A stretch of DNA of 64,000 bases, taken from a virus. Its lineage: Duplodnaviria; Caudoviricetes. The notes under the pieces were generated by a model. The model did no database searches. It saw nothing but the letters and a program-made list of their open reading frames with translations, and was not told the DNA's origin. The stretch covers positions 40,718 to 104,717 of IMG/VR virus record IMGVR_UViG_3300021295_000003. One strand, given 5' to 3'. The position numbers and the translations under genes are program-made. Below are positions 3,001-45,297 of the stretch, piece by piece; the first letter of the stretch is position 1; every line of letters begins with the position of its first letter.

Positions 3001-3299
3001 ATTGTAACTTTATTAATATACGCATTTTTGGGAATGTCTTCTGTGCTGATCCGAAAATCTGCTATTGCAATAGTTTGAGGATTTACCATATAGGAAGTTC
3101 CTGCTTTTGCATTTTTAAAAGCCGAAGAGTCGCTTCCTTTTGAGGTGTATTTTATTTTCCGTGTATATTTTCCAGTTGCAACAGTTTCTGTATTCCCATT
3201 TGCGTTTTGGATATTAATCCATTTGTTGTAGGGGGTTGTTACGTTTGGGTTCGGTTGTTCGTTTGTGGTTTTAGAGTATATTTTTTTAGTTTTAGTCAT
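1..3299 (-). CDS. Large tail/tail-tip or receptor-binding protein (3' end runs off the window)
   Basis: ATG at 3299 (MTKTKKIYSKTTNEQPNP...) after a GGAGG RBS; frame appears open to the window edge (not in the ORF track because there is no stop); downstream of the tape measure; beta-rich. Confidence 0.6.
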   Translation of the reverse strand, partial: MTKTKKIYSKTTNEQPNPNVTTPYNKWINIQNANGNTETVATGKYTRKIKYTSKGSDSSAFKNAKAGTSYMVNPQTIAIADFRISTEDIPKNAYINKVTIYVGLSCEKGLKVKAPVGSFMIYNGKGKVTQHSKDGKTGWYNNTYRVYPSTKLTTSNQDIAYTISGEEWNKMAYPTGQLHKPAFGIDLKFQDIDSMTDNSANVYLKHAYVIVDYEIPNYVLTYGRATSKDNPHSCSVNDTVCVDVTLRNTTKANGGNQTVKISLPPDTTLVSNTKPMTNLGNGEYSWVCSGAGLASTTNRLCLRLSAFGLKTLHSKLGNADYPYYIDPRPSEDITIQHGTIQANKESCWYFSIRTSTSANTVTYYVDVDGQDRVDYSKVSSAVIEQYGLDLSTDNTNVLVNWELDPSSAAEGISIVDYTNNSVTFDLINDGGEHIDNAVIKWRGCFIPLIDGDNTLIVTRQDGSVTHRYTDPYTALDSENTEIAFQIDPIIWFDHRVLVEVDALGHILPIAVNPYDSVMIEGDCTLKAHKWDEVAYIGCVPVHTSHYEPKSDYSNDLLRESYKNKTYMGKKGEIDEDISLQIKLPPRDWTTLQGLTKVDKPVPVNLVPKAFEGDVLNHRGWVELYGVKGVSKTNPLYYDGELEVSYLTHNINTRFSIEKSKDSTPAEMPQMTINVLESGEEFATYTYLDEDGEPVTSSGYFDVDTDGVYIYDKYADVEEDEEPEEIDENLRTIITMDNKQHIRIKSNETLPEQADIHLTWNSSKIEENKENNIERIIYITDDKGTPLFKYQYYNYEFDTDTEYFTCMVKASRLLEDGSWEEVIDKELLLSVDVESLQLKTVFNEETGKYEVVQEDEEDLYVDDDDDTDDGEIFAFNDYVYGSSVRFYINKNNLTVTDEGYNGKSITFSTELLPKNYYYDLQFQNLNTDGDTADVLHFFNFEVAESMITSDYANDYAGMYISSFPIPDKKVLFTRQCNEGTIYYFKDDGSNNFTYIQEPFYMYFCGVDIENQVGSSLFSLDNSYSTFYLDNGLVRLGFNRLNGELYLSKYDVQSNSYINVAELQGIHTDFSIGAFSDDKIEIVADTTVYTMYRGHPYVLIK

Positions 3300-3320
3300 T
3301 ATACTCTTACCTCCATTTGT

Positions 3321-3800
3321 TTAAATTTGTCCTTCGTACGCTTGACTGTAAATAGACCATATCATACCATCAATAGGCATAATAACCTCCTTTTGGATAG
3401 TCATAGGAGCATTGTTAATAGAATACGCTAAAACAGTTCCACTCGCATTACCAGTCGCTACAATCAAAAACGCTCCTTTAAGTAAGTGAGTTTCATCGTT
3501 CAAGTCATAACTAATACTATTACTTGCAATACTAATAGTACGATTAGCATTAACAGATTTCTGCCATAACAAAGCACATAAACCATCTTCACTATCAGTA
3601 TTAATTAAAGTAACCTCATCATTCAAACAACCATTCTCATCAAGACATTCCTCGATATTGGCTGGACAAGCTTCTACAAGTACAACACGGAAATTCTTTG
3701 TAGTTCCATCGAACATTGATGTTTTCAAGTCATCAGTATCGATTAAAGTTTCCATAAAATCGTCTATCTTCGTAAAACTAAACAAAATACTATCTGCCAT
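3321..3800 (-). CDS. Putative minor tail protein
   Basis: 159 aa, GGTGAT RBS, directly after the tape measure. Confidence 0.5.
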   Translation of the reverse strand: MADSILFSFTKIDDFMETLIDTDDLKTSMFDGTTKNFRVVLVEACPANIEECLDENGCLNDEVTLINTDSEDGLCALLWQKSVNANRTISIASNSISYDLNDETHLLKGAFLIVATGNASGTVLAYSINNAPMTIQKEVIMPIDGMIWSIYSQAYEGQI

Positions 3801-3834
3801 ATTTAATCACCATAAAAAAAAGATAAAAAGGGGA

Positions 3835-6800
3835 TTAATTACCAGTAGCTGGATTAATACCCAAAATATCAAGAATTTGTTTTCCACTTCTTTCGTCAAT
3901 CCTTTTATTATTCACTTCAACATCGTTTCCGTGAACATTAATTTCAATATTAGTATTGTAAGTATCTCCACCGTTTGTAGGTACATCGCCTTTTGTTGCG
4001 TATCTACGAGGCATACTACCTGCGTTATAACCTTTAACAGCACTACTTGTGAAACTACCTCTGTTCTGTATAGCAGTAGGGTCAATAATACCAAGACCCG
4101 GAATATTAGCCCATACGTGACCTATACCGTTCCAAGTACCGTGTCCACGTGAACCTTCAAATCCAAATGCTCTTGCAATTGCAAGGACAATATTAGTACC
4201 GTCCCAACAATTAAATGCTCCCGCTCTCAAAGCAGCAACAGGGTCATCACCGAAATTACTATCAAAGTATTTATCATAATCAGTAGCACGAATAACATCG
4301 AAAATATACTGTTTCGCAACATCAGCTCTACCTTTAACAGGGAAATTACTATTTTCAAACTTACCTACATTTAGGAAATCGTCAAGGTGATATGCTCCGA
4401 AATGAGTATTCCAACCTTTAAACTTCTTACTAATCTTATTAGTCCAGTTAAAGTTCCAACCACCTGCATAGCAAGGTTTACCTGTTTCCATCATACATTT
4501 TAAGTATTCTAACATACTATTATCAGAAGGTTGTCCGCTACTACGTCTTCCTTTGAAGAGTGATTGACTTCTACTGATTGTACCTCCTGCGTAATGCCCA
4601 TTCGCACGTCCACCTGTAAACCTGCGTCTAATAGACCCAGTATGCCCTCCTTGACTACCAATCAACTGGTCTGGGTGTTTAATCTTATTCCAAAACTCTC
4701 CAAGATTAGATTTCAATTTATTAATCTTCTGACCTGTTTGAGTCTTGATATGGTCGGCACTTGCAATTAATGCGTCTTGCATTCCTCTCCAAGATGTTTT
4801 AATGTTTCCAATATTACCAATTGTGGCTGCTTTCATATTTGACAAGCTTGAACGTGTTTTCGCTACAATGTTGGTGAAACTTGATTGTATACCTGTCTTC
4901 ATAGCATTAAAGTTTGTAACAACTTGTGATTTCATACCAGTTACAGTAGGTAGAATAGTAGAAATTGACTGTTTGAATTGGTCGAGGTTAGGAAGTTGAA
5001 TATTGCCTAAACCAAATGTAGGGTTGAAGTTAGTAGTTAATGATTGAGCTAACTGTGAAGCCATTTGAGGTAAGTTCAAACCCCCTGTGTTAGTCAAAGC
5101 TTGACCGATGTAACCCATCTCATCAGATACCGCCCTTGCCATTTTACCTGGACTGTGCTGATCCAATCCATTGTTATCTTTGAAACCATTAGACAAGGAA
5201 GTACCCAAAGCAGCCCCTCTGTCATAGAAATCTTGTTTACGCTCATCAAGATATTGTAAAGCATATCCTACTTCGGTTTCAACGGTGCTTTTGATTTTAG
5301 CATTGTCCTTAAAACCATTGGATAATTTTTCTCCGAGTCCTTTTCCTTTACTACTCATTGTGTCAGATAACCCTGTAAGAGCAGAAGAAACGTCGCTATT
5401 TAAGGAGGTTAATCCTTCTTTGACTCCACTTACGATAGCAGTACCCATATTCTTTGCAGTTGCCTTAACAGTAGGGATTGCTCCTGTCAGGGTAGTTTTG
5501 GTATTATTGATTTGGGTTTGCAATGCAGACACAACATTACTTGCATTAGTCACTCCACTTGTATCCCCACTTCCAGTAGCAGTTAAACCATTAATTTTAG
5601 TATTGAAGTTCATTATGTCTTTAACAGACATATATAACTCATCTAATCCGCTTTTAAGACCACTTGCTTGTGGGTTTCCATCTCCAATTAAGTAACCAAC
5701 TGCTGCTCCAAGAATACCCCCACTTGCCATATTTCCTTGCCAAGAAGCGTCCACAGCACTTCCCATAGCATTTTTAACAGCGTCAATAGCGGTTTGAATA
5801 GCACTAATACCATTAGCACTATTTTGAAGGGCAGCGACTTTATCAGGATTAATCGGTTCAACAGTAATGTTTTCATTGAAGTTTTTAACAAACTCGTTTA
5901 ACTGGTCTATTGGTTGTTTTAATTGTTCAAAGTAGTTAGTTACACCATTAGTGTCTGCTGTGGCTGCTCCACTTACTGCGTCTTGGTATTTTTCGTTTGG
6001 TGAACGAGTATCTGTTTCAAAGTTTGGTAAATCTTTTAAGGCTTCTTTTACAGTTACTAATGCAGTTTTAACACTATCTATACCAGTAGCAGACTCTGAC
6101 AAAGTAGTAACTTTCGCAGAGTCAATTTGGGTAATTTCTAATTTATTAAAATCAGTTATGAAAGTTTCTAATTGAGAGAAGAAACCTCCTTCACCAGTTA
6201 ATTGAGTTAAATCCGCACCAATCTTAACTCCAATTAAATTAGCAACAGCAGTAGCAAGACTATCCCAAGCAATCAAAGCAAAAGCACTCATAGCTTGTTC
6301 AACATAACCTAACGCTTCGGCAGTTAATTTAATAGCCTCTGCACCTTGTTGAACATTACTTAAATCAGTAAACTTATCCCCCAATGCTCCTATTTGTTGC
6401 AATGGATATTCAAGACTCCAAATAGTTTCGGCAACCCATAACATACCGATAGGAATGCCTAATGTAATTGCAGTTCCCATAATCGCTCCAAGAATTGGAT
6501 TAGCAAATGCAATCGCAACAGTAGCAATCGCCAAAGCCAAAGCAGGGATAAATGGTGCAAGATACATTAAAGAGTCAGACACAATCTTCATAGCTTGTGT
6601 TCCTTTTTGCACTTGTGCTTGAATACCACTATACTGGTCGCCTAATGCTCCAATCGCCCAAATACTTGGAATAATCATTACAATAGTTTCTGCTACAAGC
6701 AACATACCTGCTACAATACCAATCGCTGCTTTAAGAGTTCCTGTAACAATTTGAGTATAAGATGGAGCATATTTATCCATAATCAAAGATAACCCTACAA

Positions 6801-9800
6801 CAGCAGGGAGTAACACCGCTAAAACAGGGGAAATCATTTTCAAACCTTCAATTCCTGCTTGGATTTCAGGTTCTTGTGCTTTAAATTGTTTACCAACTTC
6901 GGCTAACCCCCACATAGGTGCTTTAAGCAATATAATCGCTTCTGTGATTAAAAGCATACCTGCTACAATACCTATGGCGGCTCTTGCATAATTTTGAGCG
7001 TCAGATTTCAAAGTTTCTTTAAATGGTGTTTTTGCTTTGGTTTTATCCACATCACCATTTATCCCACCAGTAGAAGTTGATGTACTGCCTCCTGTTTTTT
7101 CAATAGCGTCTTCGGCATTGTCTTTAACATCTTTCCAACCTTTTGCAACATCTTTAAGTTTACCACCAACTTTCTTCAAGACCTCAAAGACAGAGTCAGA
7201 ACCTGAAACCCATTTACCAATCTTTAAACCAATAAGTCCCAAACCAGTTCCTAATGCACCAATTGCAAAGACCCATCGACCGCTTTCAGTACCAAAGAAG
7301 TTCAATAACGCTTCTCCAATGCCTACAAGAGCGTCTTTAATTGCATAAGCAGTAGGTTTTAAATCGTCCCAAGTCTTTTGAACAGCTTTCCAAAAGTTAA
7401 GGAATGCGTCATTATTCCAAATGTCAATCCAAAGTAATTTAAGGTTATCAATAGCAAAGTAAGCCCCTGCCATTAAATCTCCTTGATAGAACTGTTTTAA
7501 ATGCTCTCCGGCTTCCTCTGCAACAGTAGAATACTCCATTATGTACTTATCCATATCCTTTTGAGTACGATTAGTTTCATTCATATGCTCCAAGTTTTCG
7601 CTAATATGTTTACTTGAAGCTTCTAACCAATCGTACTGTTTGTTATATGAATTAGTAATCTCATATTGGGCTTGATTGATTTTATCAACCCAAAATGCTT
7701 GTTTTTCAGTCGCTTCGGTTTCAGAGTGTCCTGCTGCCATTAAATTTTGTTTACGGAAACTTGATTGAGCCAACTTAATGGATTTTTCCCTTTCATCATT
7801 TTGGGCTTTATAACTTTTCGCTAACTTATTCGCAGTTTCTAATTCTTTTACATTACCATCTACAATGGCTTTGTTAGCTTTTGCTTGTGCATATTTATTT
7901 TTATCTTCTTTTGAAGTAGCATTAGCATACTTATCCATTATTTTCTGATAACTTGCAGACTCTTCTTTTGCCTCTTTGAGTTTGTCTGATCCGGTTTCAA
8001 CAATTTCGTTGAACGCTTCAACTCGTTTTTTGACAAGGTCTGCTTGAACTGCCATTGAAGATAACCAAGCAACTATACCAATAGCCATTACTCCACGGAT
8101 TGCCAAACCAAGCACTTTCCAAGAAGTAGCAGTTTTAAGAATGGCTTTTCCTCTACTTAATTCAGCAGCTTCACTTAATTTAATATTATTTGTTAGATAT
8201 GCTAATCTTTGAGAGCGAGTTAATTCTAATTTACTTAACTTTCCAGTTAATTTACCATTTTTATCCCGTTCCAAGAAAGATATACGCTCAATATCAATAC
8301 CCTCTTTTAATAAAGCTTTATTATGTAACAATGCTTTTCCATATCCTTTTTCGGCAAGAACTGTTTGATTAACTCCTAATAATCTTCCCATTATGGATTT
8401 AGTCCAACGGGTGTTTGCTACTTCACTTGCTTTTGTTCCGCTGATAACTGCGGCTAATGCTCTACGGAAACCATACTGTGCTACTTCGGCTTTATTCAAG
8501 TTCAAAGCAGCAGTAGCAATTGATTTGCTCCAACCGATAGTTGCAATATCTGCAAGACCCATTCCTTTGGTTACCATTGGTAAAGCGGTGAGTATTCCTC
8601 CGAATAATGCTCCTCCTCCACCAATCCAAAGGAAACTTCTCCAAAATGAATTTAAACTATTAAATGAAGTAGAAACACTATCAATTGCTCCAATAATCAT
8701 ATTAAATGCTTCTACAATCATTGGAGAGGCAGAGTCAAGTAAATCAGCACCAGTTTCCTCAAACCTTGATTGAGTAATAGTCAATACATCATTTAAGGAA
8801 GTTGCTTTTTTAGCAAAAACGTCCCAATGCCTATCAAGGGCTGCTTTTTTCAATGCTTTGAGTAAACCATCGATGTTGGTTTTATCTTCGTCCCAACCAT
8901 ATGCGACTAATTCTTCTTTACCTACACCAGTTTCTCTGGATAATCTTTGGAACTCTCCTTGAAGAATATCTTTAACTGCAAGTGCTGCTTCTTCTGATTT
9001 ACGCCCTGCACGGACATATTCAGATTGTATCATAGTAACAATCGGTAGAGCATCTTTCATCTGTTTAGCAGTTAAATCAAATTCCAAACCAATGCTTGAT
9101 ACAGTTTCTCCTATACTGTACTTATTAACTTTTTTATAGGTTTTTGTGAGTTTATCAAGTTCCTTACGGAAATACTTTATTCCCCCTTCTCCAACCTTAT
9201 CATTTTGTTTTAGTTGAGCTTCCATTTCGTTTTTAGCAGTTACGGTGGTTTTTATGCCTTCTGCAATTTGAGAAGCGAACCCCCAAAGAGCCATACCCCC
9301 CATTGCTGTGAAAATCATTTTAAGAGATAATAATGCCCCCCTAATTTGATAAAGAGTATTGGAAAGTATTCTACCACTATGGGCAGTTTGAGTCACGCCA
9401 TTGTTGAAAGAAGTTAAACCTCTTCCAGTATTACGTGCATTAACTCCTGTTTTAGTTAATTCACTATTTCCAAGAGATAATTCTCTAATTGCTTGTTGAG
9501 AAGAACTTCCAAGTAATTTTAACTTATTTGCTAATTTAGTAAGTTCACTTTCATAAGTTTGAGCTGTGATTTCGCCTTTTTTAAATGCAGTTTCCAATAC
9601 ATTTAATTTATCACGGTAAATTGTTGTTTGTTGGCTTAATTTAGCAAGAGCAGATTTATTCTTACTACTTATACTTGAAAAATGACTCAACTCCCTACTA
9701 ATACGGGATAATTTACCTGCAAGTTCATTAGACATACCCATAGAGTCCATAGAAGACATTACCATATGTGCTTTATTAGAAAAAGCATTCATCTCCGCCC

Positions 9801-12570: not shown

Positions 12571-12574
12571 TTTT

Positions 12575-14229: not shown

Positions 14230-14254
14230 AATTAACTTCCTCCTATGTGTTATG

Positions 14255-14326: not shown

Positions 14327-14328
14327 CT

Positions 14329-14368: not shown

Positions 14369-14372
14369 TGGT

Positions 14373-32552: not shown

Positions 32553-32570
32553 ATCGGATTAGGGCAATTT

Positions 32571-35278: not shown

Positions 35279-35329
35279 TTGATATTATTTACTCAAAATA
35301 ATAATATTATATTAATTATAAAGTATTAT

Positions 35330-35710: not shown

Positions 35711-35721
35711 ATAACTTATTT

Positions 35722-35740
35722 TGAAAACCTTTATATATTA
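35722..35740 (+). promoter_or_regulatory. BRE-TATA promoter for a leaderless transcript
   Basis: GAAAACCTTTATATA about 25 nt before ATG 35761. Confidence 0.65.
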
Positions 35741-35760
35741 TAATATTCATATTATTATTT

Positions 35761-35898
35761 ATGTCAGAACAAAAGACATTACAAATACGAAAGAATACTT
35801 ATGAGCGATTACAGCTACATAAGAACAAATTCGATACGTATAACATAGTGCTTACCCGTTTATTAGATAAATGGGAGGCGTTCTACAATGTCTTCTAA
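35761..35898 (+). CDS. Small ribbon-helix-helix-type DNA-binding protein (45 aa)
   Basis: KTLQIRKNTYERL...TYNIVLTRLLD pattern. Confidence 0.6.
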   Translation: MSEQKTLQIRKNTYERLQLHKNKFDTYNIVLTRLLDKWEAFYNVF

Positions 35899-36295
35899 TC
35901 CTTATATGGGAGTTCCGATTTCAGAGGAAACTCATCAACGTTTAACCAAATTAAAAGGTGAAAATGACACTTTTGATGATGTTGTGAATAAACTCCTGGA
36001 ATTGGAAGAAACATATAATATGCCGGAGGAAACAATGGAATACGAGTATATCTTGCCGAATGGTAAGACAAAAGTGTTCCGTGTGGTCTTTGGTGATAAA
36101 ACCAAGATTGAGTATTACAATCGGAGGAAATATGACTTTGAAAAGGATATTCGTGCTTGGTTTACTGGGGAGAGGATTTCTGACTCTGAAATAAACTCTT
36201 TCATTAGGTTTATTGTTAAGGACAGTAATTTGATGTTGTTATATGATATGGACGAAGAACTGGTCTTGAATGATATTCATATTAGAAGGGTTTAG
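35888..36295 (+). CDS. Regulator with N-terminal RHH-like domain
   Basis: VPISEETHQRLTKLKGENDTFDDVVNKLL. Confidence 0.6.
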   Translation: MSSNPYMGVPISEETHQRLTKLKGENDTFDDVVNKLLELEETYNMPEETMEYEYILPNGKTKVFRVVFGDKTKIEYYNRRKYDFEKDIRAWFTGERISDSEINSFIRFIVKDSNLMLLYDMDEELVLNDIHIRRV

Positions 36296-36535
36296 GTAAC
36301 TATTATATAGATAGTGGTTACATATGATTATACTGTGAGATTAACAGAATAGTTTTGGAAAAGGTTTGATTTTTACTCTTTTTTCAAGGTAGTAAAATGT
36401 TCTTAAAAAAACTACCTTTATAAATATGAAAGAGTAGATTTCTACTAATTTTTCAAGATTATTACTGCCCAAATGCTCTCTTGGAAATAATCAAACAATA
36501 CTCAAAAAGGATATAATTAAATTGGAGGTAAAAAA

Positions 36536-37729
36536 ATGACTGCAATAGAAACATTTTGTACAGAAAAAAATCTGTCAAAAAGCACCACTTCTCTCTATGA
36601 GTCTTGTGTTAAATCATACGAGGCAGTAAATCAGTTAAGTCTTGATGATTTACTCAAAGAAGCCGATAGAGAAGAAGAAGAAGCGATTAGATGGAAAAAT
36701 CGTTCATTAAGGACAAGGTTAATTAATTTCCGTAAATGGTTATTTGACAACAAAAGTCAAGGAACAGCAAACAGATACTTGGGTTGCATTAAAACAATCT
36801 ATCGCCACTTTGAGATTGAATTACAAGACCTTCCGTCTTTTAATTCAAAGCAAGTGGATAAAACTCACGAAAAAAGCTTTGAAGATATACCTACAAAGCA
36901 GGAATTAATCGACGCTTACTACGAAGCGAATAATGTATGTAAATGTATTATTTTATTTGCCAGTAGTAGTGGGATTTCCAAAGTGGACTTCTTAAACCTT
37001 TCTGTTGCAGATTTCATAAATGCTTGTTCTGATTTTGTTACAACTGATACTTTATTGGAGCAGTTGTATGAATTAAAGCAAGTAGACAATCTAATTCCTT
37101 GTTTTGAAGGGTGCAGACAGAAAACAGGTACAAGATACACTACATTCTGCTCCCCAGAGGCAGCAGAACATATCCTCCAATACTTAATCGGACGTGACGC
37201 TGAAATCAAAGAAACCTTTGAAAAAGCAGATGATGAAGAACAGGAAGACCTTCCTGAATGTTTGTCAGAGTCTGATCCGTTGTTTGATATTTCAAGTAGT
37301 CACTTATGGTATGTGTTTAGACGTATTAATAATAAATTACAATTGGGCAAAGTTGGTAAGTTTACACGTTTCCGCTGCCATCAGTTACGTGCTTTTCAAG
37401 CTTCTACTTTGGTGAATTTGGAGGAAAATTCTTTCACTATTGATGAGGTGGACGCTTTACAAGGTAGGAAGAAAGATAAAACTCATAGAGCATATTTCAC
37501 AGAGTCCAAGCAGAAACTCTTTAAGAAGTATTGTGAGAACGTGGACGCTTTACAGCTCTTCAAGACTACTCATAGTGTTACTAATGAAGAGTATGCACGT
37601 ATCAAAGAAGAAAACAGATTTTATAAGAACGAAGTTGTTAAAAATGAGAACAAATTGGAGGAGCAACAAAGGACTATTAATCAAATTCTTGCTAATCAGC
37701 GTGAGTTGGAAGCGTTATTAGGATTATAA
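36536..37729 (+). CDS. int: Tyrosine recombinase/integrase
   Basis: SAM-like N-domain, SSGISK box I, HQLR, LQGR and AY catalytic region. Confidence 0.85.
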   Translation: MTAIETFCTEKNLSKSTTSLYESCVKSYEAVNQLSLDDLLKEADREEEEAIRWKNRSLRTRLINFRKWLFDNKSQGTANRYLGCIKTIYRHFEIELQDLPSFNSKQVDKTHEKSFEDIPTKQELIDAYYEANNVCKCIILFASSSGISKVDFLNLSVADFINACSDFVTTDTLLEQLYELKQVDNLIPCFEGCRQKTGTRYTTFCSPEAAEHILQYLIGRDAEIKETFEKADDEEQEDLPECLSESDPLFDISSSHLWYVFRRINNKLQLGKVGKFTRFRCHQLRAFQASTLVNLEENSFTIDEVDALQGRKKDKTHRAYFTESKQKLFKKYCENVDALQLFKTTHSVTNEEYARIKEENRFYKNEVVKNENKLEEQQRTINQILANQRELEALLGL

Positions 37730-37993
37730 ATTGTGGGGTTGTGAGTTAATCACCACAAAAACTCACCAAACCCTGCAATTAGTTTTTTTTCTTCCGAGAA
37801 GTTGAAAAAAATAACAATTCTTGTAAAAATAGTTAATTCTAATTGCATTTTCTATTTTTATTCATTGTTGTATTTAAGTGTAAAGTATTGATTTTTAGTA
37901 ATTTTTCGTAGGTGCAAGGTAAAAAAAATCACCACATAAAATTTTACCTGTAACCTATTCTTCCGAGAAAAGAACTAACAGAGGTAAAAAAAA

Positions 37994-38122
37994 ATGAAGA
38001 AAATAACATATCAAGGCGAAGACGGAGTCTTCTATTCACAAGAAGAGTTCCAGTCTTTACAATCAAAGATTTTGGAACAAAATCAGCTCATTCAAGACCT
38101 CCTGAAAAAGGTGGTAGAATGA
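37994..38122 (+). CDS. Small hypothetical protein (42 aa)
   Basis: GAGGT RBS; ATGA-coupled to the next gene. Confidence 0.45.
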   Translation: MKKITYQGEDGVFYSQEEFQSLQSKILEQNQLIQDLLKKVVE

Positions 38123-38373
38123 ACGAATTTAAGCAGCAGATAGTGAATGTTCAAGCTTCAACCGTATTGGTTAAATCAAGCAAAGGCACTATTTATCCTG
38201 TTGTGGTATCTGACAGAGTCAGATTAAGTGGTAAAACTATTAACAAGGGAGATACTGGTGTTATTCATCGTACTAATGGTAGGTATTACTTATATGATGT
38301 AATACCTAAACAAGATGAAACCGACAGTTATCTATCCGATGTACCGTTAGGAGATTTGGGCTATGACTACTAA
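38119..38373 (+). CDS. Hypothetical protein
   Basis: 84 aa. Confidence 0.55.
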   Translation: MNEFKQQIVNVQASTVLVKSSKGTIYPVVVSDRVRLSGKTINKGDTGVIHRTNGRYYLYDVIPKQDETDSYLSDVPLGDLGYDY

Positions 38374-38524
38374 AAAACCGAAATCTTTGTATCCAGCAAC
38401 CGAAACAGAGCAGATTAATGTAAACTTTGCGTTAATTGTTTTAATGAGCGTTTTATTTGGATTTGTATTAGCATTAATTGGGTTTGCAACTATGCACTAC
38501 CCATCTATTCAGGGGGTGATTTAA
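38363..38524 (+). CDS. Small single-TM protein (53 aa)
   Basis: MTTKKPK...FALIVLMSVLFGFVLALIGF; coupled to neighbours. Confidence 0.45.
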   Translation: MTTKKPKSLYPATETEQINVNFALIVLMSVLFGFVLALIGFATMHYPSIQGVI

Positions 38525-39282
38525 TGAATTTAGTATACAGGAGAATAACCGAAGAAGTCTACGAAGACGAGAACCTTGTGGAAATTAAATCTAACGATGA
38601 CGAAATTAAAACTCTTCATCGTAGGATTGATTTATTACAAGCGGAAATTAATGAAATGAAATCTTTGTTAGTACAACCTGCAAAGACAACCGTTTCCACC
38701 GTTTCCACAACCCCAGTTAAAACAAGAACTGTTGCTGCTTGTAATCAGAAACCGTTTAAAAGGTTTGTTTACTCTAATTATGAGTTCCAATCAACCGCTC
38801 GATATTCAGGGAAAGTCTTATTTGATATTTCTGATGTTGTGAGATTATCTAAACTTATTGATAATGTAGAGAAGTTTCCGACAATGAAATTGTTAAAGGA
38901 GAATGTTGCTCCATTTATGGGTAATAATACTTTTACTAAACTTGTTTATAATTATCAGGAAGGATTTTTCAAGGATTATCTTTCAGAATATTATAAGAAT
39001 GTTAAATTCACTATCTGCAATAATCACATTTGTATTGATGGAATGGATACCAAATTGCGTCCTGATGAGGTTTGGTACATTGTTAATTTAGTGATTAATT
39101 CCAATAATCATTATGAATGTGTTGATAATCTTGTTAAACAGTATTCAAAGACTAAACCTTTGTTTATCAAGATTATAACTGATTTTGCAAGTGATGGGAG
39201 ATTGAGCAGACTGCTCCACCCTCCACTAAAACAGGTTAAAATTGAGAATAATCCTGAAAAAAGGAGAGAAATGGGCTTATGA
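38524..39282 (+). CDS. Hypothetical protein with N-terminal coiled coil
   Basis: 252 aa, GGTGAT RBS. Confidence 0.65.
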   Translation: MNLVYRRITEEVYEDENLVEIKSNDDEIKTLHRRIDLLQAEINEMKSLLVQPAKTTVSTVSTTPVKTRTVAACNQKPFKRFVYSNYEFQSTARYSGKVLFDISDVVRLSKLIDNVEKFPTMKLLKENVAPFMGNNTFTKLVYNYQEGFFKDYLSEYYKNVKFTICNNHICIDGMDTKLRPDEVWYIVNLVINSNNHYECVDNLVKQYSKTKPLFIKIITDFASDGRLSRLLHPPLKQVKIENNPEKRREMGL

Positions 39283-39406
39283 ATGATTTAGAAGCAAGAA
39301 AATTGGGTGCAATCTTGGAGGAGATTGCAACTCAATTAAAAATACAAAATGAGTTGTTAAGACAGATGAATGATAATTTAATTGATATTAAAGGAGGTAT
39401 GCCTTA

Positions 39407-39670
39407 ATGGGTATAGAAGAAGCGTTATTAAACGAAATGAGAGCAGAAGCGAATAAAGTAATGATTGAACGTATCAAAGATGGTAGAATTACACTTGACA
39501 ATGATGTTATTCCCCCGTTCCTATCAGCAAACTTGGTATCAAATCCTCAAATGATTGATATACTTGAAGCAATGGCTGATTTGATTATGGAGGAAACAAT
39601 GGAAAAAGAATACGTTGTCTTTTTCTTAAACAAAGTCAGAGAACTTGCAAACAAAGAAAGGAGTTTCTAA
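39407..39670 (+). CDS. Hypothetical protein
   Basis: 87 aa, GGAGGT RBS. Confidence 0.55.
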   Translation: MGIEEALLNEMRAEANKVMIERIKDGRITLDNDVIPPFLSANLVSNPQMIDILEAMADLIMEETMEKEYVVFFLNKVRELANKERSF

Positions 39671-39672
39671 AT

Positions 39673-40374
39673 ATGGCAAGAAGACCTAAAAAAGAAGAAA
39701 CTGCACCGATTGTCATTCACGATGAACAAGGGGGTATAATGGCTGAATATCCATCTGATTTGGTGGATACAATCAAAGCGACCGTAGCAAAAGGAGCTAC
39801 CGATGAGGAACTTTATATGTTCCTCTCTATCGCTAATCAGTACGATTTAAACCCATTTATGAAGGAGATATGGTTCACAAAAATGCAAGGAGAAGTCGCT
39901 ATAATGACTTCCCGTGACGGTTATAAGAAATTAGCCGAAAAAGAACCGAATTTCCGTAAATGTCAATCAATGGCAGTTTATGAGAACGATGAGTTTGAAA
40001 TGGAGTTAGTAATGGGTGAAGTGATGAATATTACTCACAAATTCAAGCAGAACGATAGAGGAAATATTATCGGTGCATATGCAGTCTTAAAGACCACAGA
40101 CCACGATAATTATGTGTCCTACGTTGATTTCAAAGAATATGACAAAAGAAATAACATTTGGAAACGTTATCCGTCCGCAATGATACGTAAAGTTGCAGAG
40201 AATGATGTTTACAAACGCTTTGCGAAAGTTAATGGGGTTTCAGATTTCGAGTCTATGCCTAACGGGTTCAGAAATGAACTTGCAGAGGAAGAGATGGATT
40301 TTAGTGAAGAATTTGAACCGATAGACATTCAACAAGTAATAGATGATACAATCGAAGAAAGTAAGGAGGAATAA
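39673..40374 (+). CDS. bet: RecT/Bet-family single-strand annealing protein
   Basis: ATDEEL..F......LNPF.KEIW, SRDGY, W...P.AMIRKVAE. Confidence 0.85.
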   Translation: MARRPKKEETAPIVIHDEQGGIMAEYPSDLVDTIKATVAKGATDEELYMFLSIANQYDLNPFMKEIWFTKMQGEVAIMTSRDGYKKLAEKEPNFRKCQSMAVYENDEFEMELVMGEVMNITHKFKQNDRGNIIGAYAVLKTTDHDNYVSYVDFKEYDKRNNIWKRYPSAMIRKVAENDVYKRFAKVNGVSDFESMPNGFRNELAEEEMDFSEEFEPIDIQQVIDDTIEESKEE

Positions 40375-40376
40375 TT

Positions 40377-40964
40377 ATGGCAGTAGACCCAAAATATGTA
40401 GAAGAAGTTAAAAACGAAGAAGAAAAAACCGATTTCACTTCCACTTTGGAAATGTTTGGAATTGAAGCGTCCAACGAGTCCGTCGGCAACGGAATAGACA
40501 TTACTGGTTATATGGAAACCAAACTCCGTGATATGTATGATGGTGACGAATGTACTGGAAAACCCGTCTTATCTGACATTTATACTGTTGAGTTTAAGGA
40601 CAAAAATACTGGGGAAACCATTGTAAACAATAAATTAGATTTATTACTCTTTGATGACAGTTATGAGGACGAAAAAGAAGTTTACACTTTCCCAATCAAC
40701 TTAAACAGCGACAACATTGACTTTGAAAAACACATTGTCAAAAATGTAAACTCTGCAAGTGGATTGTATGCTCTCGCAATGGGATTTATGGACTTGGAAA
40801 CTCCGGGTATCAGTAAAGCGTTCAATAAACTTGATGTTGTACCATATGTACAGTTAAAAAAGATTATTGAAAGTTATAAAACCGTGATGGTACAAGTTGT
40901 TGAAAAACAATTCAACAATAATTATTACAATAGTTTTAGAGTTGTAGAAGGTAAAAAAGAGTAG
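40377..40964 (+). CDS. Acidic hypothetical protein (possible ssDNA-binding)
   Basis: 195 aa between recombinase and helicase. Confidence 0.5.
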   Translation: MAVDPKYVEEVKNEEEKTDFTSTLEMFGIEASNESVGNGIDITGYMETKLRDMYDGDECTGKPVLSDIYTVEFKDKNTGETIVNNKLDLLLFDDSYEDEKEVYTFPINLNSDNIDFEKHIVKNVNSASGLYALAMGFMDLETPGISKAFNKLDVVPYVQLKKIIESYKTVMVQVVEKQFNNNYYNSFRVVEGKKE

Positions 40965-40973
40965 GAATGAGAA

Positions 40974-42977
40974 ATGAACTGGGAAGAGCAAGGTAAAAAA
41001 CTGGTGGACGTTTTAACACCGGTTTATAAACCGCAGAGCGAAAGAAAACTCTTTAAAAGTATCATAAGTGCTTTATATCATAATACTTTTGAGATTGATG
41101 ACGCTGAAAAGATGATAATGAGCATTTATGATAATCTTCCCGACCATCGATTTGAACGTTCTGAAATCTTCAAACTATTAGATGATGTATTTATGGGAGA
41201 AGAAACTTCAAATGGAGGAATATCCTCCCTTGAAGACATCTTAACCATTGACTATGGTAATAAATCTGCACGTAAAGCTGTAAAAAAAATCAAAAAAATC
41301 ATAAGTCCTGCCGAGTCTATGGGAAACTTTGAAATCACCGATAATTCTTGGATCAGGATTGATTTTGTTAATAATGAAGTGGATTATGAGTCTGTGTCTT
41401 TGGTTAAGAATGAGCGTGTTGTTTCTTCTTCAAAGATTTTGTTATGTAGACCGTATAAGGTTGTAGTTCACGAAGACCCTTTGTATGATGGGCAACGTGA
41501 GTTTACGATTACTTGGGTTACTACAAACAATACATATTTCACTACACGTAAAACTACTATCTCTGCGATGGAGTCCCAGTTATATGATAGTGGATATGTA
41601 GTTAATCAGAAACATTTGAAGACTGCTATGGCAAGTGTTATTCAATTGTTTGTAGCGAATGGTGTAGCAGAAATCCAAAATGAAATACAAGCAAAAGGTT
41701 TCTATGTGAGTAAATCTAATCAGTTGGTTATGGTTGATTATGAGTTGAAACCAGTTGTTAAATCAGAAGTTGAGTCTGCTTTGGATTTGATTGAGGATTT
41801 GAGGCATTTTTTTATAGGTCACGAACCGAAACTTGCTACTACATTGAAGCACGGAATGATAGCTCCATTTGGTTTCGCAAAGAAACAGTTAGGTTTGCCA
41901 TTGGAGTTGTTAATTCCTTATTTGTATCATTATGGGAAAGCAGGGTCAGGTAAGACTACTATTGCCCGTATTGGTTTATGGTTTTACGATAAACCTCAAA
42001 TGGACTTTAATGACATTGGAGGAACTGAATTTGATACCGTTCCAAGAATTGGAGAACAGTTGCGTAAATCAACATTTGGTTTGTTGGTAAATGAACCTGA
42101 AACAAGTTTGTCAAAGAAATCCTGTGCAGCAACATTAAAAACATCAGTTGAAAGGACAAACGCAAGACAGCGTATAAGTGGAAATCGTATGGAGCATATC
42201 CTTGCTTTATCTACTGTTAGTTTCGCTTCAAATATTCCTTTACCAAATATTGAGGGTTTACCACGTCGGTTTGTTCAAATATTGTATAGTTACAATGAGA
42301 AGAAATCCGATGAGGAAAAGGAAGCGTTTATGAAACATTTTAAATTAAACTCTCCTGACGAATGTGAGTTCAACAAACTTCAATTCTTGGCGAATTTTGT
42401 TGTCAAACAGATAGATAATGAGATTGATTTGTTAAAACTTTCTTGGAAAGAGTTAGGAAATGAATTAATCAATCGAGCATATGACTATGTTGGGCGTGAA
42501 GTACCTATTTGGTTGCTCCAATATGTTGAGTCCGTGACAGAGGAAGACCTTGATGATGAGGAAATTGAGGACATCAGAATATTTTTCTTAAATGAAATCA
42601 ATAAACAATCTTCTCAAATCAAATTATACTCATCAGAGGACGGACGTAGTTTAAATCAAGATGTATTTTATACAGAAGAGGTTAAAACAAGTGAGGACTT
42701 TGAAGAGAGAGTTTGGAACGTTTTAAATGAGGGATTAATCCCATTTATGGTTACTCACGAAAATCGTGAGGGAATACGTGAAGTCTGTTTCCTAAATGGT
42801 TTGAAAAAAGCATTGAACGAAGCGAATATTGCGTGTTACTCTATCCCTTCTACTGCGGAACTGCTTGGTTGGGATACAGGATATACTAAAATCAATGGGA
42901 AGTCCAGTCGATGTATGAAAATTAATTTCAGACGATTTGTAAGGTTCTTGTATCCTTCTTTGGAGGGTCTTGAATGA
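40974..42977 (+). CDS. Replicative helicase-like P-loop ATPase
   Basis: 667 aa; Walker A GKAGSGKTT, LLVNE Walker B, RRF arginine finger. Confidence 0.75.
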   Translation: MNWEEQGKKLVDVLTPVYKPQSERKLFKSIISALYHNTFEIDDAEKMIMSIYDNLPDHRFERSEIFKLLDDVFMGEETSNGGISSLEDILTIDYGNKSARKAVKKIKKIISPAESMGNFEITDNSWIRIDFVNNEVDYESVSLVKNERVVSSSKILLCRPYKVVVHEDPLYDGQREFTITWVTTNNTYFTTRKTTISAMESQLYDSGYVVNQKHLKTAMASVIQLFVANGVAEIQNEIQAKGFYVSKSNQLVMVDYELKPVVKSEVESALDLIEDLRHFFIGHEPKLATTLKHGMIAPFGFAKKQLGLPLELLIPYLYHYGKAGSGKTTIARIGLWFYDKPQMDFNDIGGTEFDTVPRIGEQLRKSTFGLLVNEPETSLSKKSCAATLKTSVERTNARQRISGNRMEHILALSTVSFASNIPLPNIEGLPRRFVQILYSYNEKKSDEEKEAFMKHFKLNSPDECEFNKLQFLANFVVKQIDNEIDLLKLSWKELGNELINRAYDYVGREVPIWLLQYVESVTEEDLDDEEIEDIRIFFLNEINKQSSQIKLYSSEDGRSLNQDVFYTEEVKTSEDFEERVWNVLNEGLIPFMVTHENREGIREVCFLNGLKKALNEANIACYSIPSTAELLGWDTGYTKINGKSSRCMKINFRRFVRFLYPSLEGLE

Positions 42978-43318
42978 TTAATTGTGATTTTGAGCGATGT
43001 ACTGACAAGTGTACTTATTATGAGTCTTGTATACTACATCACCCATCACATTTTAATCAACTTCAAGTCGAAGAGGAATTAAAATGGAATGTCAATCGAT
43101 TAAATGAATTGACAAGAGGGATTAATCAATATAAACAATCGCTCTATGAATATGATAGGTTGCCTGATGAGGTGCAGAAATACTTGTCACGTGAAAAACT
43201 ACAAGACCTGATCCGTAAGAGTGAGCTTGAAAAACAGGAAGTTCAATCAACAATCAGGGAATTGCAAATTAAAGAGTTAAACATTAGAAAAATTTTACAG
43301 AGAAGAAAGGGGAATTAG
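42974..43318 (+). CDS. Hypothetical Cys-rich/coiled-coil protein
   Basis: 114 aa. Confidence 0.55.
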   Translation: MINCDFERCTDKCTYYESCILHHPSHFNQLQVEEELKWNVNRLNELTRGINQYKQSLYEYDRLPDEVQKYLSREKLQDLIRKSELEKQEVQSTIRELQIKELNIRKILQRRKGN

Positions 43319-43320
43319 TT

Positions 43321-43704
43321 ATGAATTTTGTTGTAATAGAGAATAAGGAGTCTAATGTGGATATGGGGTCTTTTGAGGACGAGTATTTACATTCTACTAT
43401 TATGAATGAGGAATTAAGGGTTAAGTATGGTTTATCTAAATTAGAGTTTCGTAATTTGACTCAAAAGATTAAAGAGCGTCTTGGTGTGAGTCGCAGACCG
43501 AATGTGGCTGCCAAGTATTATTATGTGCATTGTAATGCGTGGGTTATTCATAGGAAAATTAATGGGGAATTAGTTTACTATGGGCGTATTCCGTTTAGTA
43601 TGGGGGAGGAAACTTTAAATCAGGCATTACAGATTTGTGAAGCGAATAACTGGGAATGTGAAAAATGTAAGAAATTGATTAGGGAGTTGAAACAATGCAA
43701 TTAG
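43321..43704 (+). CDS. Putative DNA-binding protein (AP2-like C-domain)
   Basis: W.I.RKING..VYYG pattern. Confidence 0.5.
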   Translation: MNFVVIENKESNVDMGSFEDEYLHSTIMNEELRVKYGLSKLEFRNLTQKIKERLGVSRRPNVAAKYYYVHCNAWVIHRKINGELVYYGRIPFSMGEETLNQALQICEANNWECEKCKKLIRELKQCN

Positions 43705-43804
43705 AACCTACTCTTGAAAAAGGTTACATTATTGATTGTGATTATTTGATACGTGTGAGGGATTATCATCGTTTAACTCCGTTGATTATTGTTGAGGTGG
43801 ATTT

Positions 43805-44185
43805 GTGGGACGAGTTATAGATGTTGAAGAGTTTCGTAAGGATTTAAGGACTATGTCGCTTGAAGATACTCTTATCAAGCATAATGTGTCTTTGGAGGAA
43901 GCAATGGACTGTATGCCGAAGACGTATACAAAACCTAAACCTAAAAAGAAACGTTTAAAGAATGTGGATAGGTATATTCAAGAGCGTGATGGTCGCTTTT
44001 ATCTTCGGAAATGGATTAATGGTAAAACATTAATGTTCGGGACTTATAATAGTCTGAATGACGCTAAAAAAGTCAGGGAACATTGTGAAAAACACGGGTG
44101 GAAACAAAATTGTATTAAACAGTATTGTGAAGAGCTTGGGATTGAACTGATTTCAGTTCATAAAACAAAGGAGAGATACGAATGA
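43805..44185 (+). CDS. Putative DNA-binding protein (AP2-like C-domain)
   Basis: YIQ..GRFYLRK.ING...FGTYNSLNDA. Confidence 0.55.
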   Translation: MGRVIDVEEFRKDLRTMSLEDTLIKHNVSLEEAMDCMPKTYTKPKPKKKRLKNVDRYIQERDGRFYLRKWINGKTLMFGTYNSLNDAKKVREHCEKHGWKQNCIKQYCEELGIELISVHKTKERYE

Positions 44186-44517
44186 ACATTGTAGTTAATG
44201 GAGATGTGGTTATTTATGAAAACACTTCTTCTAAAAAGTCTGTTAAGGATATACGTGTTTCTTCTCAATTAAGTAAAGTTAAGCAGAAAGTAAAAAGCAG
44301 AGATGGTCTTTGTCAATGTTGCGGAGAGGACGCTAATGGGCATTTAGAAGTCCATCATATCCTCCCCGTTGCAAAATACAAAGATTTGGCTTGTGATATG
44401 AATAATATGATTAGTTTGTGTCAGAAATGCCACGCAAAGTATCACGATTTGTATCCGCAGGTGAATGCTGTTACTTTTAGCGATTATATGAAAAGATATG
44501 CGAATAGGAGGGGTTAA
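44182..44517 (+). CDS. HNH endonuclease
   Basis: CQCCG, EVHHI, N..SLCQKCH. Confidence 0.85.
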   Translation: MNIVVNGDVVIYENTSSKKSVKDIRVSSQLSKVKQKVKSRDGLCQCCGEDANGHLEVHHILPVAKYKDLACDMNNMISLCQKCHAKYHDLYPQVNAVTFSDYMKRYANRRG

Positions 44518-44690
44518 ATTATGCCAAATAGTGCAGAAATGGAATTAAGAGCATTACATAACACAATAGCTGAAATTAAAAGACAAATGCAAGACTGTGT
44601 GAATGTAAAACACTATGAAGAGTTACAAAAACAATTAAACGAATTTGAACAGATGAGAATTGACTTATTAAAAAAAATGGAAGTGGAATT

Positions 44691-45149
44691 ATGAGTTTTA
44701 TTATTGATAAAATTGATTTAGATAATAGATTAGTTGTTAGGGAGAAATCTACTGGTTGGTTTTTCCCTGTTGAGTCTAAAATCCAAGCAGAAGTCTTATG
44801 TGATAAATTTAACGAAATTGAAAACAAACCATTGGATTTACATAAAAATTTTGAGGAATGGGACAAATACATTGACAATGTTATTATCGGTGAAAAAAAC
44901 TTAATCAATCTCAAACAAGAATTTGAAGAACAATCACAAGAAATAATCGCAAATACTGACTTCAAAGAACTTTACGGAGCAAACAATCAGAAAGTAAGAG
45001 ATAATCATATTAAAAAAGAATTATCCGAACTTACTGAAACAATCAATGATACCAAACTCAAAGTAGAGTATGCAAAAATGAGAATAAGTTTCCTGAAACG
45101 CTTAATCGATATGAAAACAGAACTCATCAAATACGGAGAAGACAAATGA
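44691..45149 (+). CDS. Hypothetical coiled-coil protein
   Basis: 152 aa. Confidence 0.55.
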   Translation: MSFIIDKIDLDNRLVVREKSTGWFFPVESKIQAEVLCDKFNEIENKPLDLHKNFEEWDKYIDNVIIGEKNLINLKQEFEEQSQEIIANTDFKELYGANNQKVRDNHIKKELSELTETINDTKLKVEYAKMRISFLKRLIDMKTELIKYGEDK

Positions 45150-45297
45150 GTAGATACAATGTTAAAAAAATCTTGAAAAAAATCCGCTATGGGGTCGGTG
45201 ATTTCAAATATCAAATTGTCACTTCGGATCAGGTTGTCTGTGATGACATCAGCAATGAGGAGTTGGCAATTGAATTATGTAGGGAGATGAACCGTGT

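Follow-up and report, generated by a model that had tools for sequence, protein, structure and literature searches.

Genome organization of the locus

The window analysed here, a stretch of 64,000 nucleotides, is part of a record of 104,717 bp whose ends overlap by 151 bp. The record consists of two tailed-virus genomes of Methanobrevibacter, elements A and B, fused at a common 0.7-kb repeat. Element A spans about 61 kb (60.5 kb in the counts below; ~61.2 kb by estimate), of which 1-46.2 kb lie in the window and 14.3 kb upstream of it, and element B spans about 43 kb. An exact direct repeat of 678 bp is present at both A/B junctions. The first-pass annotation of this DNA had described a distinct left genome ending near 45.3 kb; this boundary is real and corresponds to the 678(+30)-bp direct repeat that unites the two viruses. 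Genome positions 27097-88197 do not contain a single CATG. The host genus was assigned from relatives of the element A large terminase (TerL) in two Methanobrevibacter MAGs, and no prophage at ≥90% identity was found in 103 Methanobrevibacter genomes. A segment at 32010-32050 has matches of 37-40 nt in many host genomes; it is AT-rich and promoter-like, and a tRNA or att site was ruled out there. The features of the window are listed in Table 1.

Table 1 CTGATCC sites, exceptional GATC sites, and other features of the window
Feature	Position	Strand	Basis or remark
Element A, window share	1..46185	.	siphovirus genome of Methanobrevibacter; zone purged of GATC/CTAG/CATG
CTGATCC site	3046..3052	+	exact count
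CTGATCC site, tape-measure gene	5158..5164	+	exact count
CTGATCC site, tape-measure gene	7986..7992	+	exact count
CTGATCC site, tape-measure gene	9957..9963	+	exact count
CTGATCC site, sole intergenic one	12608..12614	+	exact count
CTGATCC site	16167..16173	-	exact count; plus strand reads GGATCAG
CTGATCC site, end of portal gene	20832..20838	+	count, comparison; also in 99%-identical contig L001
CTGATCC site, TerL Walker A motif	23239..23245	+	count, comparison; G-S-G written GGA TCA G
AT-rich island, largely non-coding	25400..27700	.	where most copies of other purged GC-rich words remain
Exception GGGATCCG	27540..27547	.	GATC at 27541; variant copy of origin box GG(T/A)CCCGTTAA
Exceptions AAAAGATCAG, two copies	27577..27622	+	AGATCAG at 27577 and 27616; GATC at 27578 and 27617
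Iterons (TTTAAGTTATGGTAGATA), 9-11 copies	27716..28110	+	repeat analysis
CTGATCC site	29504..29510	+	exact count
CTGATCC site, anti-restriction/M78 peptidase-like gene	30701..30707	+	count
Exception CTGATCT (= AGATCAG; CTGATCTG)	31513..31519	+	GATC at 31515
Split C5-cytosine methylase, sole DNA methylase of element A	33323..34955	+	profile matches
CTGATCC site, first of inverted pair 45 bp apart	35168..35174	+	count
CTGATCC site, second of inverted pair	35213..35219	-	count
CTGATCC site, integrase-like gene	37272..37278	+	count
CTGATCC site, gene for 667-aa protein, function unassigned	41350..41356	-	count
CTGATCC site	43208..43214	+	count
CTGATCC site, final one ahead of A/B junction	45226..45232	-	count
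A/B junction repeat	46186..46895	+	identical to genome 25668-26375 over 678(+30) bp

GATC is retained in one asymmetric context

Exact counting found 20 GATC in window positions 1-46.2 kb, where base composition predicts ~145, a scarcity stronger than that first noticed by eye left of ~45.3 kb. Sixteen of the 20 lie within CTGATCC or its complement GGATCAG. The first-pass annotation had placed 15 of about 18 GATC in this 7-mer; all 15 are real, and the site at 9957 had been overlooked. The cluster of exceptions it reported at 27540-27620 also holds (27541, 27578, and 27617), with a fourth exception missed at 31515, the only GATC in coding DNA that is not part of CTGATCC. Across the whole of element A (60.5 kb), 20 of 24 GATC are in CTGATCC/GGATCAG, and the other four comprise three CTGATCT/AGATCAG and one GGATCC in a repeated origin box. 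The rule CTGATCY (= RGATCAG) describes 23 of the 24. Right of the junction, element B is depleted as well (30 GATC compared with ~135-145 expected), yet the contexts there are random and none of the 30 is RGATCAG.

Codon-preserving shuffles of element A contained 118.6 +/- 8.3 GATC, compared with 24 observed, and 5.4 +/- 1.8 GGATCAG (maximum 12 in 300 shuffles), compared with 20 observed, a 3.7-fold enrichment. Exact counts thus show GATC depleted relative to the codon model, with no wealth of copies in other contexts, and CTGATCC enriched. Approximately 4.6% of shuffled GATC fall in GGATCAG/CTGATCC, giving a binomial P of ~1e-23 for 20 of 24. YGATCAG (~9 expected) is absent from element A, and so are GGATCAH (~12 expected), GGATCT, and GGATCG; with GGATCAG alone surviving, an exemption of GGATC as such is ruled out. 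The sites occur in every reading frame and in both orientations relative to the genes, and GGTTCAG, a permitted synonymous alternative to GGATCAG, occurs six times. The context restriction therefore acts at the DNA level, and coding constraint is ruled out. Codon choice follows the same rule: Gly-Ser-G tripeptides are written GGATCAG in 8 of 19 cases (1.6 expected), and GGATCA is used for none of the 47 Gly-Ser pairs followed by a base other than G. In the TerL Walker A motif, three relatives have GGT TCA, GGT TCG, or GGG TCT where element A has the site; at least this one site, 23239, is therefore a derived gain.

Two further explanations of the word itself were discarded. Repair of the very-short-patch type is ruled out because the T-variant GGATTAG occurs no less often than expected (11 compared with ~6); GAATCAG is absent from element A solely through the ban on GAWTC. 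An extended Shine-Dalgarno sequence (GGTGATCC) is ruled out because most sites are gene-internal and antisense.

A broad purge and the restriction enzymes of the host genus

Element A has been purged of at least 20 restriction-type words, GATC included. In the codon-shuffle comparison, CTAG (0 observed, 82 expected), CATG (1 and 94), GGCC (2 and 24), and GCGC (2 and 26) have nearly disappeared, and GAWTC, CTNAG, CASTG, GGATG, GTCTC, ACGAC, CTGAAG, GAATTC, and TTCGAA are near zero too. The set of purged words differs among relatives. CATG is purged solely in element A, contig L001, and contig L002, and the purges of CTNAG, CASTG, GGATG, CCGG, and GAWTC vary independently; such lineage-specific combinations are expected because restriction systems are patchy. 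Among 103 Methanobrevibacter species genomes, intact ORFs for DpnII-family nucleases are present in 10 and ORFs for Sau3AI-like nucleases (MutH-domain, 440-490 aa) in 17, so that approximately a quarter of the species carry a GATC nuclease of one type or the other. Dam-class methylases are present in 28 of the 103. The depth and breadth of the purge, together with matching nucleases in the host genus, make restriction avoidance in element A well supported, and with it the strong GATC-directed restriction that had been suspected from the letters.

Purging of this kind has precedents. Staphylococcus phage K is free of GATC. Archaeal tailed viruses are already known to purge GATC or to methylate it themselves, and those of haloarchaea are without GATC except where they carry a Dam methylase gene (PMC8651126). 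Element A resembles known cases of avoidance in that short palindromic words are nearly gone relative to a codon null, the purged set varies by lineage, and corresponding nucleases occur in the host genus. It differs in the unusual breadth of the purge (~20 words, including 5-mers and 6-mers) and in keeping one purged word, over-represented, in one asymmetric 7-bp context.

Excess, spacing, and conservation of the sites

The number of sites expected if CTGATCC were simply immune was estimated by MCMC sampling in which synonymous codons were exchanged, 22 words were banned, and the CTGATCC context was exempt. This null yielded 9.1-9.6 +/- 2.1 sites and never more than 17 (420 samples), so the 20 observed represent a ~2-fold excess (z ~5) and cannot be a side-effect of the other banned words. 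Inheritance of the enrichment from the host is also ruled out, since CTGATCC occurs at 330 per Mb in element A and at ~55-60 per Mb in the 103 Methanobrevibacter genomes, a 5.8-fold difference. The 8th base is G in 11 of the 20 sites, compared with a fraction of 0.33 in the constrained null.

Thirteen sites are on the plus strand and seven on the minus strand, and their orientation does not clearly change at the origin; GGATCAG is on the coding strand in 14 of 20 (null 0.59). The first-pass suggestion that the sites recur every few kilobases is weak overall: their spacing (CV 0.65) departs from uniform placement (P = 0.03), but is ordinary among site sets drawn from the synonymous null. Under a second-order Markov model of element A, 13 other 7-mers are at least equally enriched.

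Contig L001, 99% identical and from another sample, has the same purge, and both sites are present in it. The pattern is not shared by L002, L110, L111, or L003, and relatives at ~75% nucleotide identity lack it; in L002, the closest relative with the same purge profile, three of four GATC are in other contexts. In relatives, the GATC that remain show a 3.1-fold over-representation of GGATCA/TGATCC, compared with 1.9-fold in host DNA (host-genus GATC counts from 393 kb sampled from two MAGs). A pattern search of viral contigs around site 29504 returned no match in other strains, and the viral contigs contained no relatives of the 667-aa protein.

GATC at the putative origin

The iterons probably represent the replication origin of element A. 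Three of the exceptional GATC (27541, 27578, and 27617) are spaced 37-39 bp apart and lie ~100-170 bp before them. Each of the two AAAAGATCAG copies forms the end of a 25-nt direct repeat, and these paired repeats are spaced 39 bp apart in AT-rich DNA directly before the iterons. Survivors of other purged words are concentrated in the adjacent AT-rich island, which holds 3 of 9 CCWGG, 5 of 6 GGWCC, 5 of 6 CGCG, 2 of 2 GCGC, and 1 of 2 GGCC, and many of these GC-rich survivors are inside repeated GGTCCCGTTAA-type boxes. The P1 plasmid/phage origin and pac site have GATC-containing heptamers or hexamers beside iterons, which act via their methylation state. Element A is similar in having GATC-bearing short repeats beside iterons in an AT-rich stretch. 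Unlike P1, it has an archaeal host and no Dam-type methylase (a scan of 74 ORFs of element A turned up no adenine methylase family), and its dispersed CTGATCC sites have no P1 counterpart.

The C5-cytosine methylase of element A

The methylase gene is split and frameshifted. Motifs I-VIII are encoded at 33323-33847 and specificity-domain-like modules with motifs IX-X at 34027-34782; a further module follows a G10 tract (33998-34007) out of frame, and a mini-ORF (34779-34955) encodes another. Both halves match PF00145 (N-terminal, E = 4e-72; C-terminal, E = 5e-16). More than one specificity-domain module is present between motifs VIII and IX, with repeats of the type KVKCL...Q..(V/I)Y...G(I/L)(S/A)P(S/T)L. 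Multispecific C5-methylases occur in the Bacillus phages SPR, phi3T, rho11, and H2, and split ones are of the M.AquI type. The element A enzyme shares with these its multiple modules between VIII and IX and its separate N- and C-terminal pieces; none of its modules resembles a host M.Sau3AI-like GATC methylase.

The M.Sau3AI-like enzyme used for this comparison adjoins a Sau3AI-like nuclease in the host; the variable region of the viral methylase has no similarity to it, which makes a GATC-type (Sau3AI-type) specificity domain unlikely, and did not align with solved C5-methylases. CCGG, GCSGC, and GACGC, which are tolerated by element A and purged from element B, are more plausible targets than CTGATCC. 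No methylase accounting for protection of CTGATCC was identified in element A, where the C5 enzyme is the only one present.

Why CTGATCC survives

Purging ~95 other GATC would pay little if 20 cuttable ones stayed, and those 20 must therefore be refractory. The CTGATCC setting is thus probably shielded from cutting, and we infer modification as the cause. The reading that we tentatively prefer is that restriction stripped element A of ~20 words and that the surviving CTGATCY cannot be cut, likely through an overlapping, sequence-specific modification of the GATC core. The ~2-fold excess over the neutral expectation suggests that the virus also gains something from the site, and the setting may serve as a signal. 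A protected context and a selected, spaced signal had initially been offered as alternatives. They are not mutually exclusive: protection is logically needed, and the count is about twice neutral.

Under the preferred reading, restriction pressure would remove ~20 short recognition words, including GATC, and the DpnII-like and Sau3AI-like nucleases scattered in the host genus would be unable to cut CTGATCY. Its GATC core would be modified by an overlapping sequence-specific enzyme supplied by the virus or by the producing host, an asymmetric 7-bp specificity of the kind typical of methylases that act on a single strand. Any mutation in a flank would re-expose a cuttable GATC, and the 7-mer would then be kept all-or-none. 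Overlapping methylation is a familiar block to cleavage, as with Dam at ClaI, XbaI, and BclI sites, and m5C at GATC stops Sau3AI; to our knowledge, however, no single methylation fully blocks both DpnII-type and Sau3AI-type enzymes. Protection by an overlapping methylase would yield an all-or-none flank rule and an asymmetric 6-7-bp specificity, as in element A. Asymmetric methylases overlapping GATC do exist, and Salmonella DNA is methylated at the motif GATCA*G (PMC9239280). The adenine methylated in that motif lies outside the GATC core, unlike the modification proposed here. Viruses facing overlapping-methylase systems are normally selected against the target, whereas element A is enriched for CTGATCC. 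Several findings count against modification. No methylase with the required specificity was found, and the gene for the one C5 enzyme of element A is split and frameshifted. A mark made by the host should leave RGATCAG in the co-assembled element B, yet it has none, and in L002 most GATC are in other contexts. The ~2-fold excess and the frequent use of GGATCAG for Gly-Ser-G are left unexplained. Element B and L002, which lack the pattern, may have different hosts.

It is possible, though we give it less credence, that in this virus lineage CTGATCC(G) has been positively selected as a cis-acting signal, at which occupancy or processing by a reader excludes nucleases while other GATC are lost to ordinary avoidance. 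Such a reader, encoded by the virus or by the host, might simply bind the site, nick it specifically, act as a priming factor, or regulate end processing in a Chi-like manner. Such a signal would fit the enrichment over codon shuffles, the immune-context null, and host density alike, the preference for GGATCAG in Gly-Ser-G, the TerL site gained relative to three relatives, and the graded preference for G at the 8th base. Two AGATCAG and one GGATCC also stand 37-39 bp apart beside the iterons, and the origin boxes with their repeats are the only places where other purged words persist, so avoidance can give way to function. Further, genes for an HNH endonuclease, a NUMOD3 protein, and an ERCC4-HhH nuclease are present in element A. 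Against a signal stand the missing conservation in relatives at ~75% identity, the lack of an orientation switch at the origin, a coding-strand bias that fits the null, spacing that is not robust to the synonymous null, and the other 7-mers of equal or greater enrichment. Moreover, naked injected DNA would be exposed to restriction until a protein binds, and no reader protein was identified.

In its broadest form, this would make CTGATCC(G) a selected genome mark of an archaeal virus, written on an otherwise forbidden tetranucleotide at ~20 places and in the GATCAG cluster at the origin, and hidden by its own reader or modifier; we give this the same limited credence. Such a mark might serve in site-specific nicking, priming, end-protection, or strand marking, and for archaeal viruses no such role has been described. 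Dispersed signals are familiar in phages as Chi-like sites and as the site-specific nicks of T5 and phiKMV-type phages, and we know of no Chi-type system in archaea. Like these signals, the element A word is asymmetric, 7-8 bp long, over-represented, and present ~20 times per genome at kilobase spacing. Unlike them, it follows no strand or orientation rule and is not conserved in relatives.

A simple blind spot, in which the GATC enzymes of this virus's hosts cut CTGATCY poorly or never and no modification or reader is required, is improbable. It would account for the all-or-none context rule, for the failure to find a matching methylase in the virus, and for the stronger over-representation of GGATCA/TGATCC among relatives' GATC than in host DNA. 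However, enumeration of symmetric 6-bp specificity sets in place of plain GATC (RGATCY, YGATCR, TGATCA, and combinations such as RGATCY + YGATCR) failed to reproduce the survivors, the 2-fold excess stays unexplained, and two unrelated nuclease families in the genus would need the same gap. We know of no absolute asymmetric 7-bp exclusion in homodimeric type II GATC enzymes.

That the pattern carries no biology and is simply a by-product of chance, of codon or dipeptide constraint, of the other banned words, or of sequencing or assembly errors at methylated motifs is very improbable and largely refuted: banning many words does funnel codons into permitted contexts (9 sites in the constrained null, 5.4 in free shuffles) and further 7-mers are strongly enriched, but the context exclusivity is extreme, synonymous alternatives are permitted and used, L001 repeats the purge and both sites in an independent sample, and comparable purges in relatives come from many separate assemblies. 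The same purge in independent contigs rules out a long-read basecalling artefact at methylated motifs.

Implications for viruses of methanogens

Restriction avoidance is textbook biology; for a purged word that is kept, and enriched, in one asymmetric 7-mer only, a literature search returned no earlier description. The genome of element A reads as a record of ~20 restriction specificities in Methanobrevibacter populations. The complementary purge sets of elements A and B, and the multi-module C5-methylase in A only, suggest how these two co-occurring viruses split the strategies of purging a word and methylating it. Virus-host conflict in gut and rumen methanogens is experimentally almost unexplored, and CTGATCC provides a testable prediction of either a new methylase specificity or a new cis-signal in the viruses of these archaea.

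Context rule for GATC in element A

The window spans the junction of elements A and B, two Methanobrevibacter tailed-virus genomes joined in one record at a shared repeat. In its first 46.2 kb, GATC occurs 20 times by exact count against about 145 expected from composition, and 16 of these copies lie within the 7-mer CTGATCC (GGATCAG on the other strand). This confirms the claim of the first-pass annotation, made by eye, that GATC is purged left of about 45.3 kb except inside CTGATCC; the 15 CTGATCC sites that it listed are joined by another at 9957, and one exception, at 31515, had also been overlooked. The whole of A contains 24 GATC, 20 of them within the 7-mer. Of the four exceptions, three read AGATCAG (at 27578 and 27617, and on the other strand at 31515), and the rule is sharpened to CTGATCY (RGATCAG), obeyed by 23 of 24 GATC with CTGATCC strongly preferred. 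The remaining exception, GGGATCCG at 27541, is a variant copy of a repeated origin box. In 300 shuffles of the synonymous codons of each gene, GATC averaged 118.6 ± 8.3 and GGATCAG 5.4 ± 1.8 (maximum 12), compared with 24 and 20 observed. YGATCAG (~9 expected) and GGATCAH (~12 expected) do not occur in A, and all other contexts are likewise empty. The 7-mer sites are spread over all three reading frames and lie in either orientation to the genes, with a single intergenic site, and permitted synonymous alternatives exist; the rule therefore acts on DNA rather than on protein.

An AT-rich island of 2.3 kb (window 25.4-27.7 kb), adjoining the 9-11 iterons, keeps most of the surviving GC-rich purged words of A, many of them within repeated GGTCCCGTTAA-type boxes, and therefore functional DNA elements can override the purge.

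Probable protection and possible signal at CTGATCY

Escape from restriction depends on how many cuttable sites remain, and 20 cuttable CTGATCC sites would leave hardly any selection to bring the other ~95 GATC down to four. Since the purge of the rest would otherwise be hardly selectable, we infer that GATC in the surviving CTGATCY context is almost certainly refractory to the nucleases met by the virus. Protection by an overlapping asymmetric modification is our preferred, if tentative, explanation. Asymmetric methylases with a target overlapping GATC exist, such as that for GATCA*G in Salmonella (PMC9239280); in the literature we found no paper naming the 7-mer as a motif and no Methanobrevibacter methylome featuring it.

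The abundance of the 7-mer was compared with a neutral immune-context model, in which within-gene synonymous codon swaps were made by MCMC and rejected if they created any of 22 banned words, or GATC outside CTGATCY. The equilibrium held 9.1-9.6 ± 2.1 GGATCAG (maximum 17 in 420 samples) against 20 observed, and ~7 AGATCAG against 3 observed. Where Gly-Ser precedes a G-initial codon, GGATCAG is used in 8 of 19 cases (1.6 expected), and where a non-G base follows, GGATCA is used in none of 47. The base after CTGATCC is G at 11 of 20 sites, compared with a fraction of 0.33 in the constrained null, and 7-mer density in A is 5.8 times that of 103 Methanobrevibacter genomes. The Walker A codons of TerL are GGA TCA GGT in A and in a 99%-identical contig from another sample, and GGT TCA, GGT TCG, and GGG TCT in three relatives; the GATC of A is thus a derived gain in an otherwise GATC-removing lineage.

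This gain and the two-fold excess over the neutral model keep in play the reading of the 7-mer as a true cis-signal of the virus, which we rate as less likely than modification. Its weak points are that 13 other 7-mers of this distorted genome reach an equal or higher enrichment over a Markov model, that orientation (13:7) follows no rule, and that the pattern is missing both from relatives at ~75% nucleotide identity and from B (0 of 30 GATC). In the earlier suggestion of a selected signal spaced every few kb, the spacing is a weak part: its evenness (CV 0.65, P = 0.03 against uniform placement) is ordinary against null site sets. Among the relatives' remaining GATC, GGATCA/TGATCC is only mildly favoured (3.1-fold vs 1.9-fold in host DNA). 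Other over-represented 7-mers of A under a second-order Markov model include GCCGAAG/CTTCGGC (16 vs 1.1), CAGAGTC/GACTCTG (21 vs 3.4), and GAAGCGA/TCGCTTC (20 vs 3.1); these words are either by-products of the purge or additional signals. A nuclease blind spot at CTGATCY is improbable and an artefact scarcely credible, both being less likely than modification or a cis-signal.

Record architecture and host

The virus record is 104,717 bp long, with the window covering its bases 40718-104717, its ends overlap by 151 bp (1 mismatch) within a tape-measure gene, and it holds two virion gene sets, both complete. A direct repeat sits at both A/B junctions and splits the circle in two; the record is either a true co-integrate or two circles or genomes fused by the assembler at the shared segment. 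TerL of A has relatives at 84% and 71% in two Methanobrevibacter MAGs and many more in rumen/gut viral contigs, and the host is therefore a Methanobrevibacter. A short AT-rich stretch between divergent gene blocks has 85-92% identity to at least 10 Methanobrevibacter genomes. There is no tRNA at three of the matching host locations, and the stretch resembles a promoter of host type, not an attachment site.

Features of the record and of elements A and B
Feature	Position	Content
Element A (~61.2 kb)	window 1-46185 + 14.3 kb upstream	siphovirus-type genes, integrase-like gene, RecT, iteron origin
Element B (~43.3 kb)	window 46896-64000 + genome 1-25667	sheath-type tail
Direct repeat	genome 25668-26375 (locus L190, genome-side copy, 4669-5376) and 86903-87612 (= window 46186-46895)	678 bp exact, +30 bp past one mismatch
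Small paralogous genes	window 45660-47000 and genome 25668-27300	several copies round both A/B junctions, each starting ATGACTGAAAAACGATTT
tRNA-Trp (CCA) gene	window 14254-14326, minus strand	between A tail genes
Origin-like region	window 25400-28110	9-11 iterons (TTTAAGTTATGGTAGATA); repeated GG(T/A)CCCGTTAA-type boxes; two 25-nt direct repeats, each with AAAAGATCAG at end; majority of surviving CGCG, GCGC, GGWCC, CCWGG copies
AT-rich stretch	window 32010-32050	37-40 nt
C5-methylase, first part	window 33323-33847	motifs I-VIII
C5-methylase, second part	window 34027-34782	several specificity-domain-like modules, motifs IX-X
HNH endonuclease of A	window 44182-44517	

Multi-word purge in A, B, and their relatives

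GATC is one of many words purged from A. CTAG (0), CATG (1), GGCC (2), GCGC (2), and CGCG (6) are rare, and degenerate 5-mers (GAWTC, CTNAG, CASTG), asymmetric 5-mers (GGATG, GTCTC, ACGAC), and 6-mers (CTGAAG, CTGCAG, GAATTC, TTCGAA, GGTACC) are at or near zero; CCWGG is down to 0.20 of expectation and GGWCC to 0.14. The purge set of B differs, taking in GGCC along with CCGG, GCSGC, GACGC, GGGAC, and GASTC, the words lacking in B in an A/B contrast whose A side is CTAG, CATG, GAWTC, CTNAG, CASTG, GGATG, GTCTC, GAATTC, and TTCGAA; CTAG and CATG are kept in B. The two sets are complementary, with GGCC, GCGC, and CGCG absent or purged in both.

Among 74 ORFs of A that were scanned, the only methylase is a C5-cytosine enzyme (window 33323-34955). 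Its coding sequence is broken into pieces, with the frame changing three times: a G10 tract (33998-34007) precedes one specificity-domain-like module, which is out of frame, and a 58-aa mini-ORF carries another. The enzyme may be multispecific and either phase-variable or in decay. Its variable region shows no likeness to the M.Sau3AI-like methylase that a host genome encodes next to a Sau3AI-like nuclease, nor to any solved C5-methylase. CCGG, GCSGC, and GACGC, tolerated in A and purged in B, would be more natural targets, and the multi-module enzyme may cover words purged only by B. No link to the 7-mer was found for the HNH endonuclease, NUMOD3 protein, or ERCC4-HhH nuclease also encoded by A.

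Site avoidance is on record for archaeal tailed viruses (PMC8651126), and we explain the purge by restriction avoidance with high confidence. GATC-directed restriction, as proposed in the first-pass annotation, is supported by the GATC deficit under codon shuffles and by the patchy occurrence of GATC nucleases in the host genus, a classic condition for site avoidance: among 103 Methanobrevibacter species genomes, DpnII-family enzymes are present in 10, Sau3AI-like nucleases in 17, and Dam-class methylases in 28. The purged words combine differently in each relative of A (loci L002-L016 and L110-L129); GGCC and GCGC are nearly always among them, and CTAG, CATG, CTNAG, CASTG, GGATG, CCGG, and GAWTC vary. 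Taken as a family, these viruses form a mosaic that records the restriction systems of their hosts.
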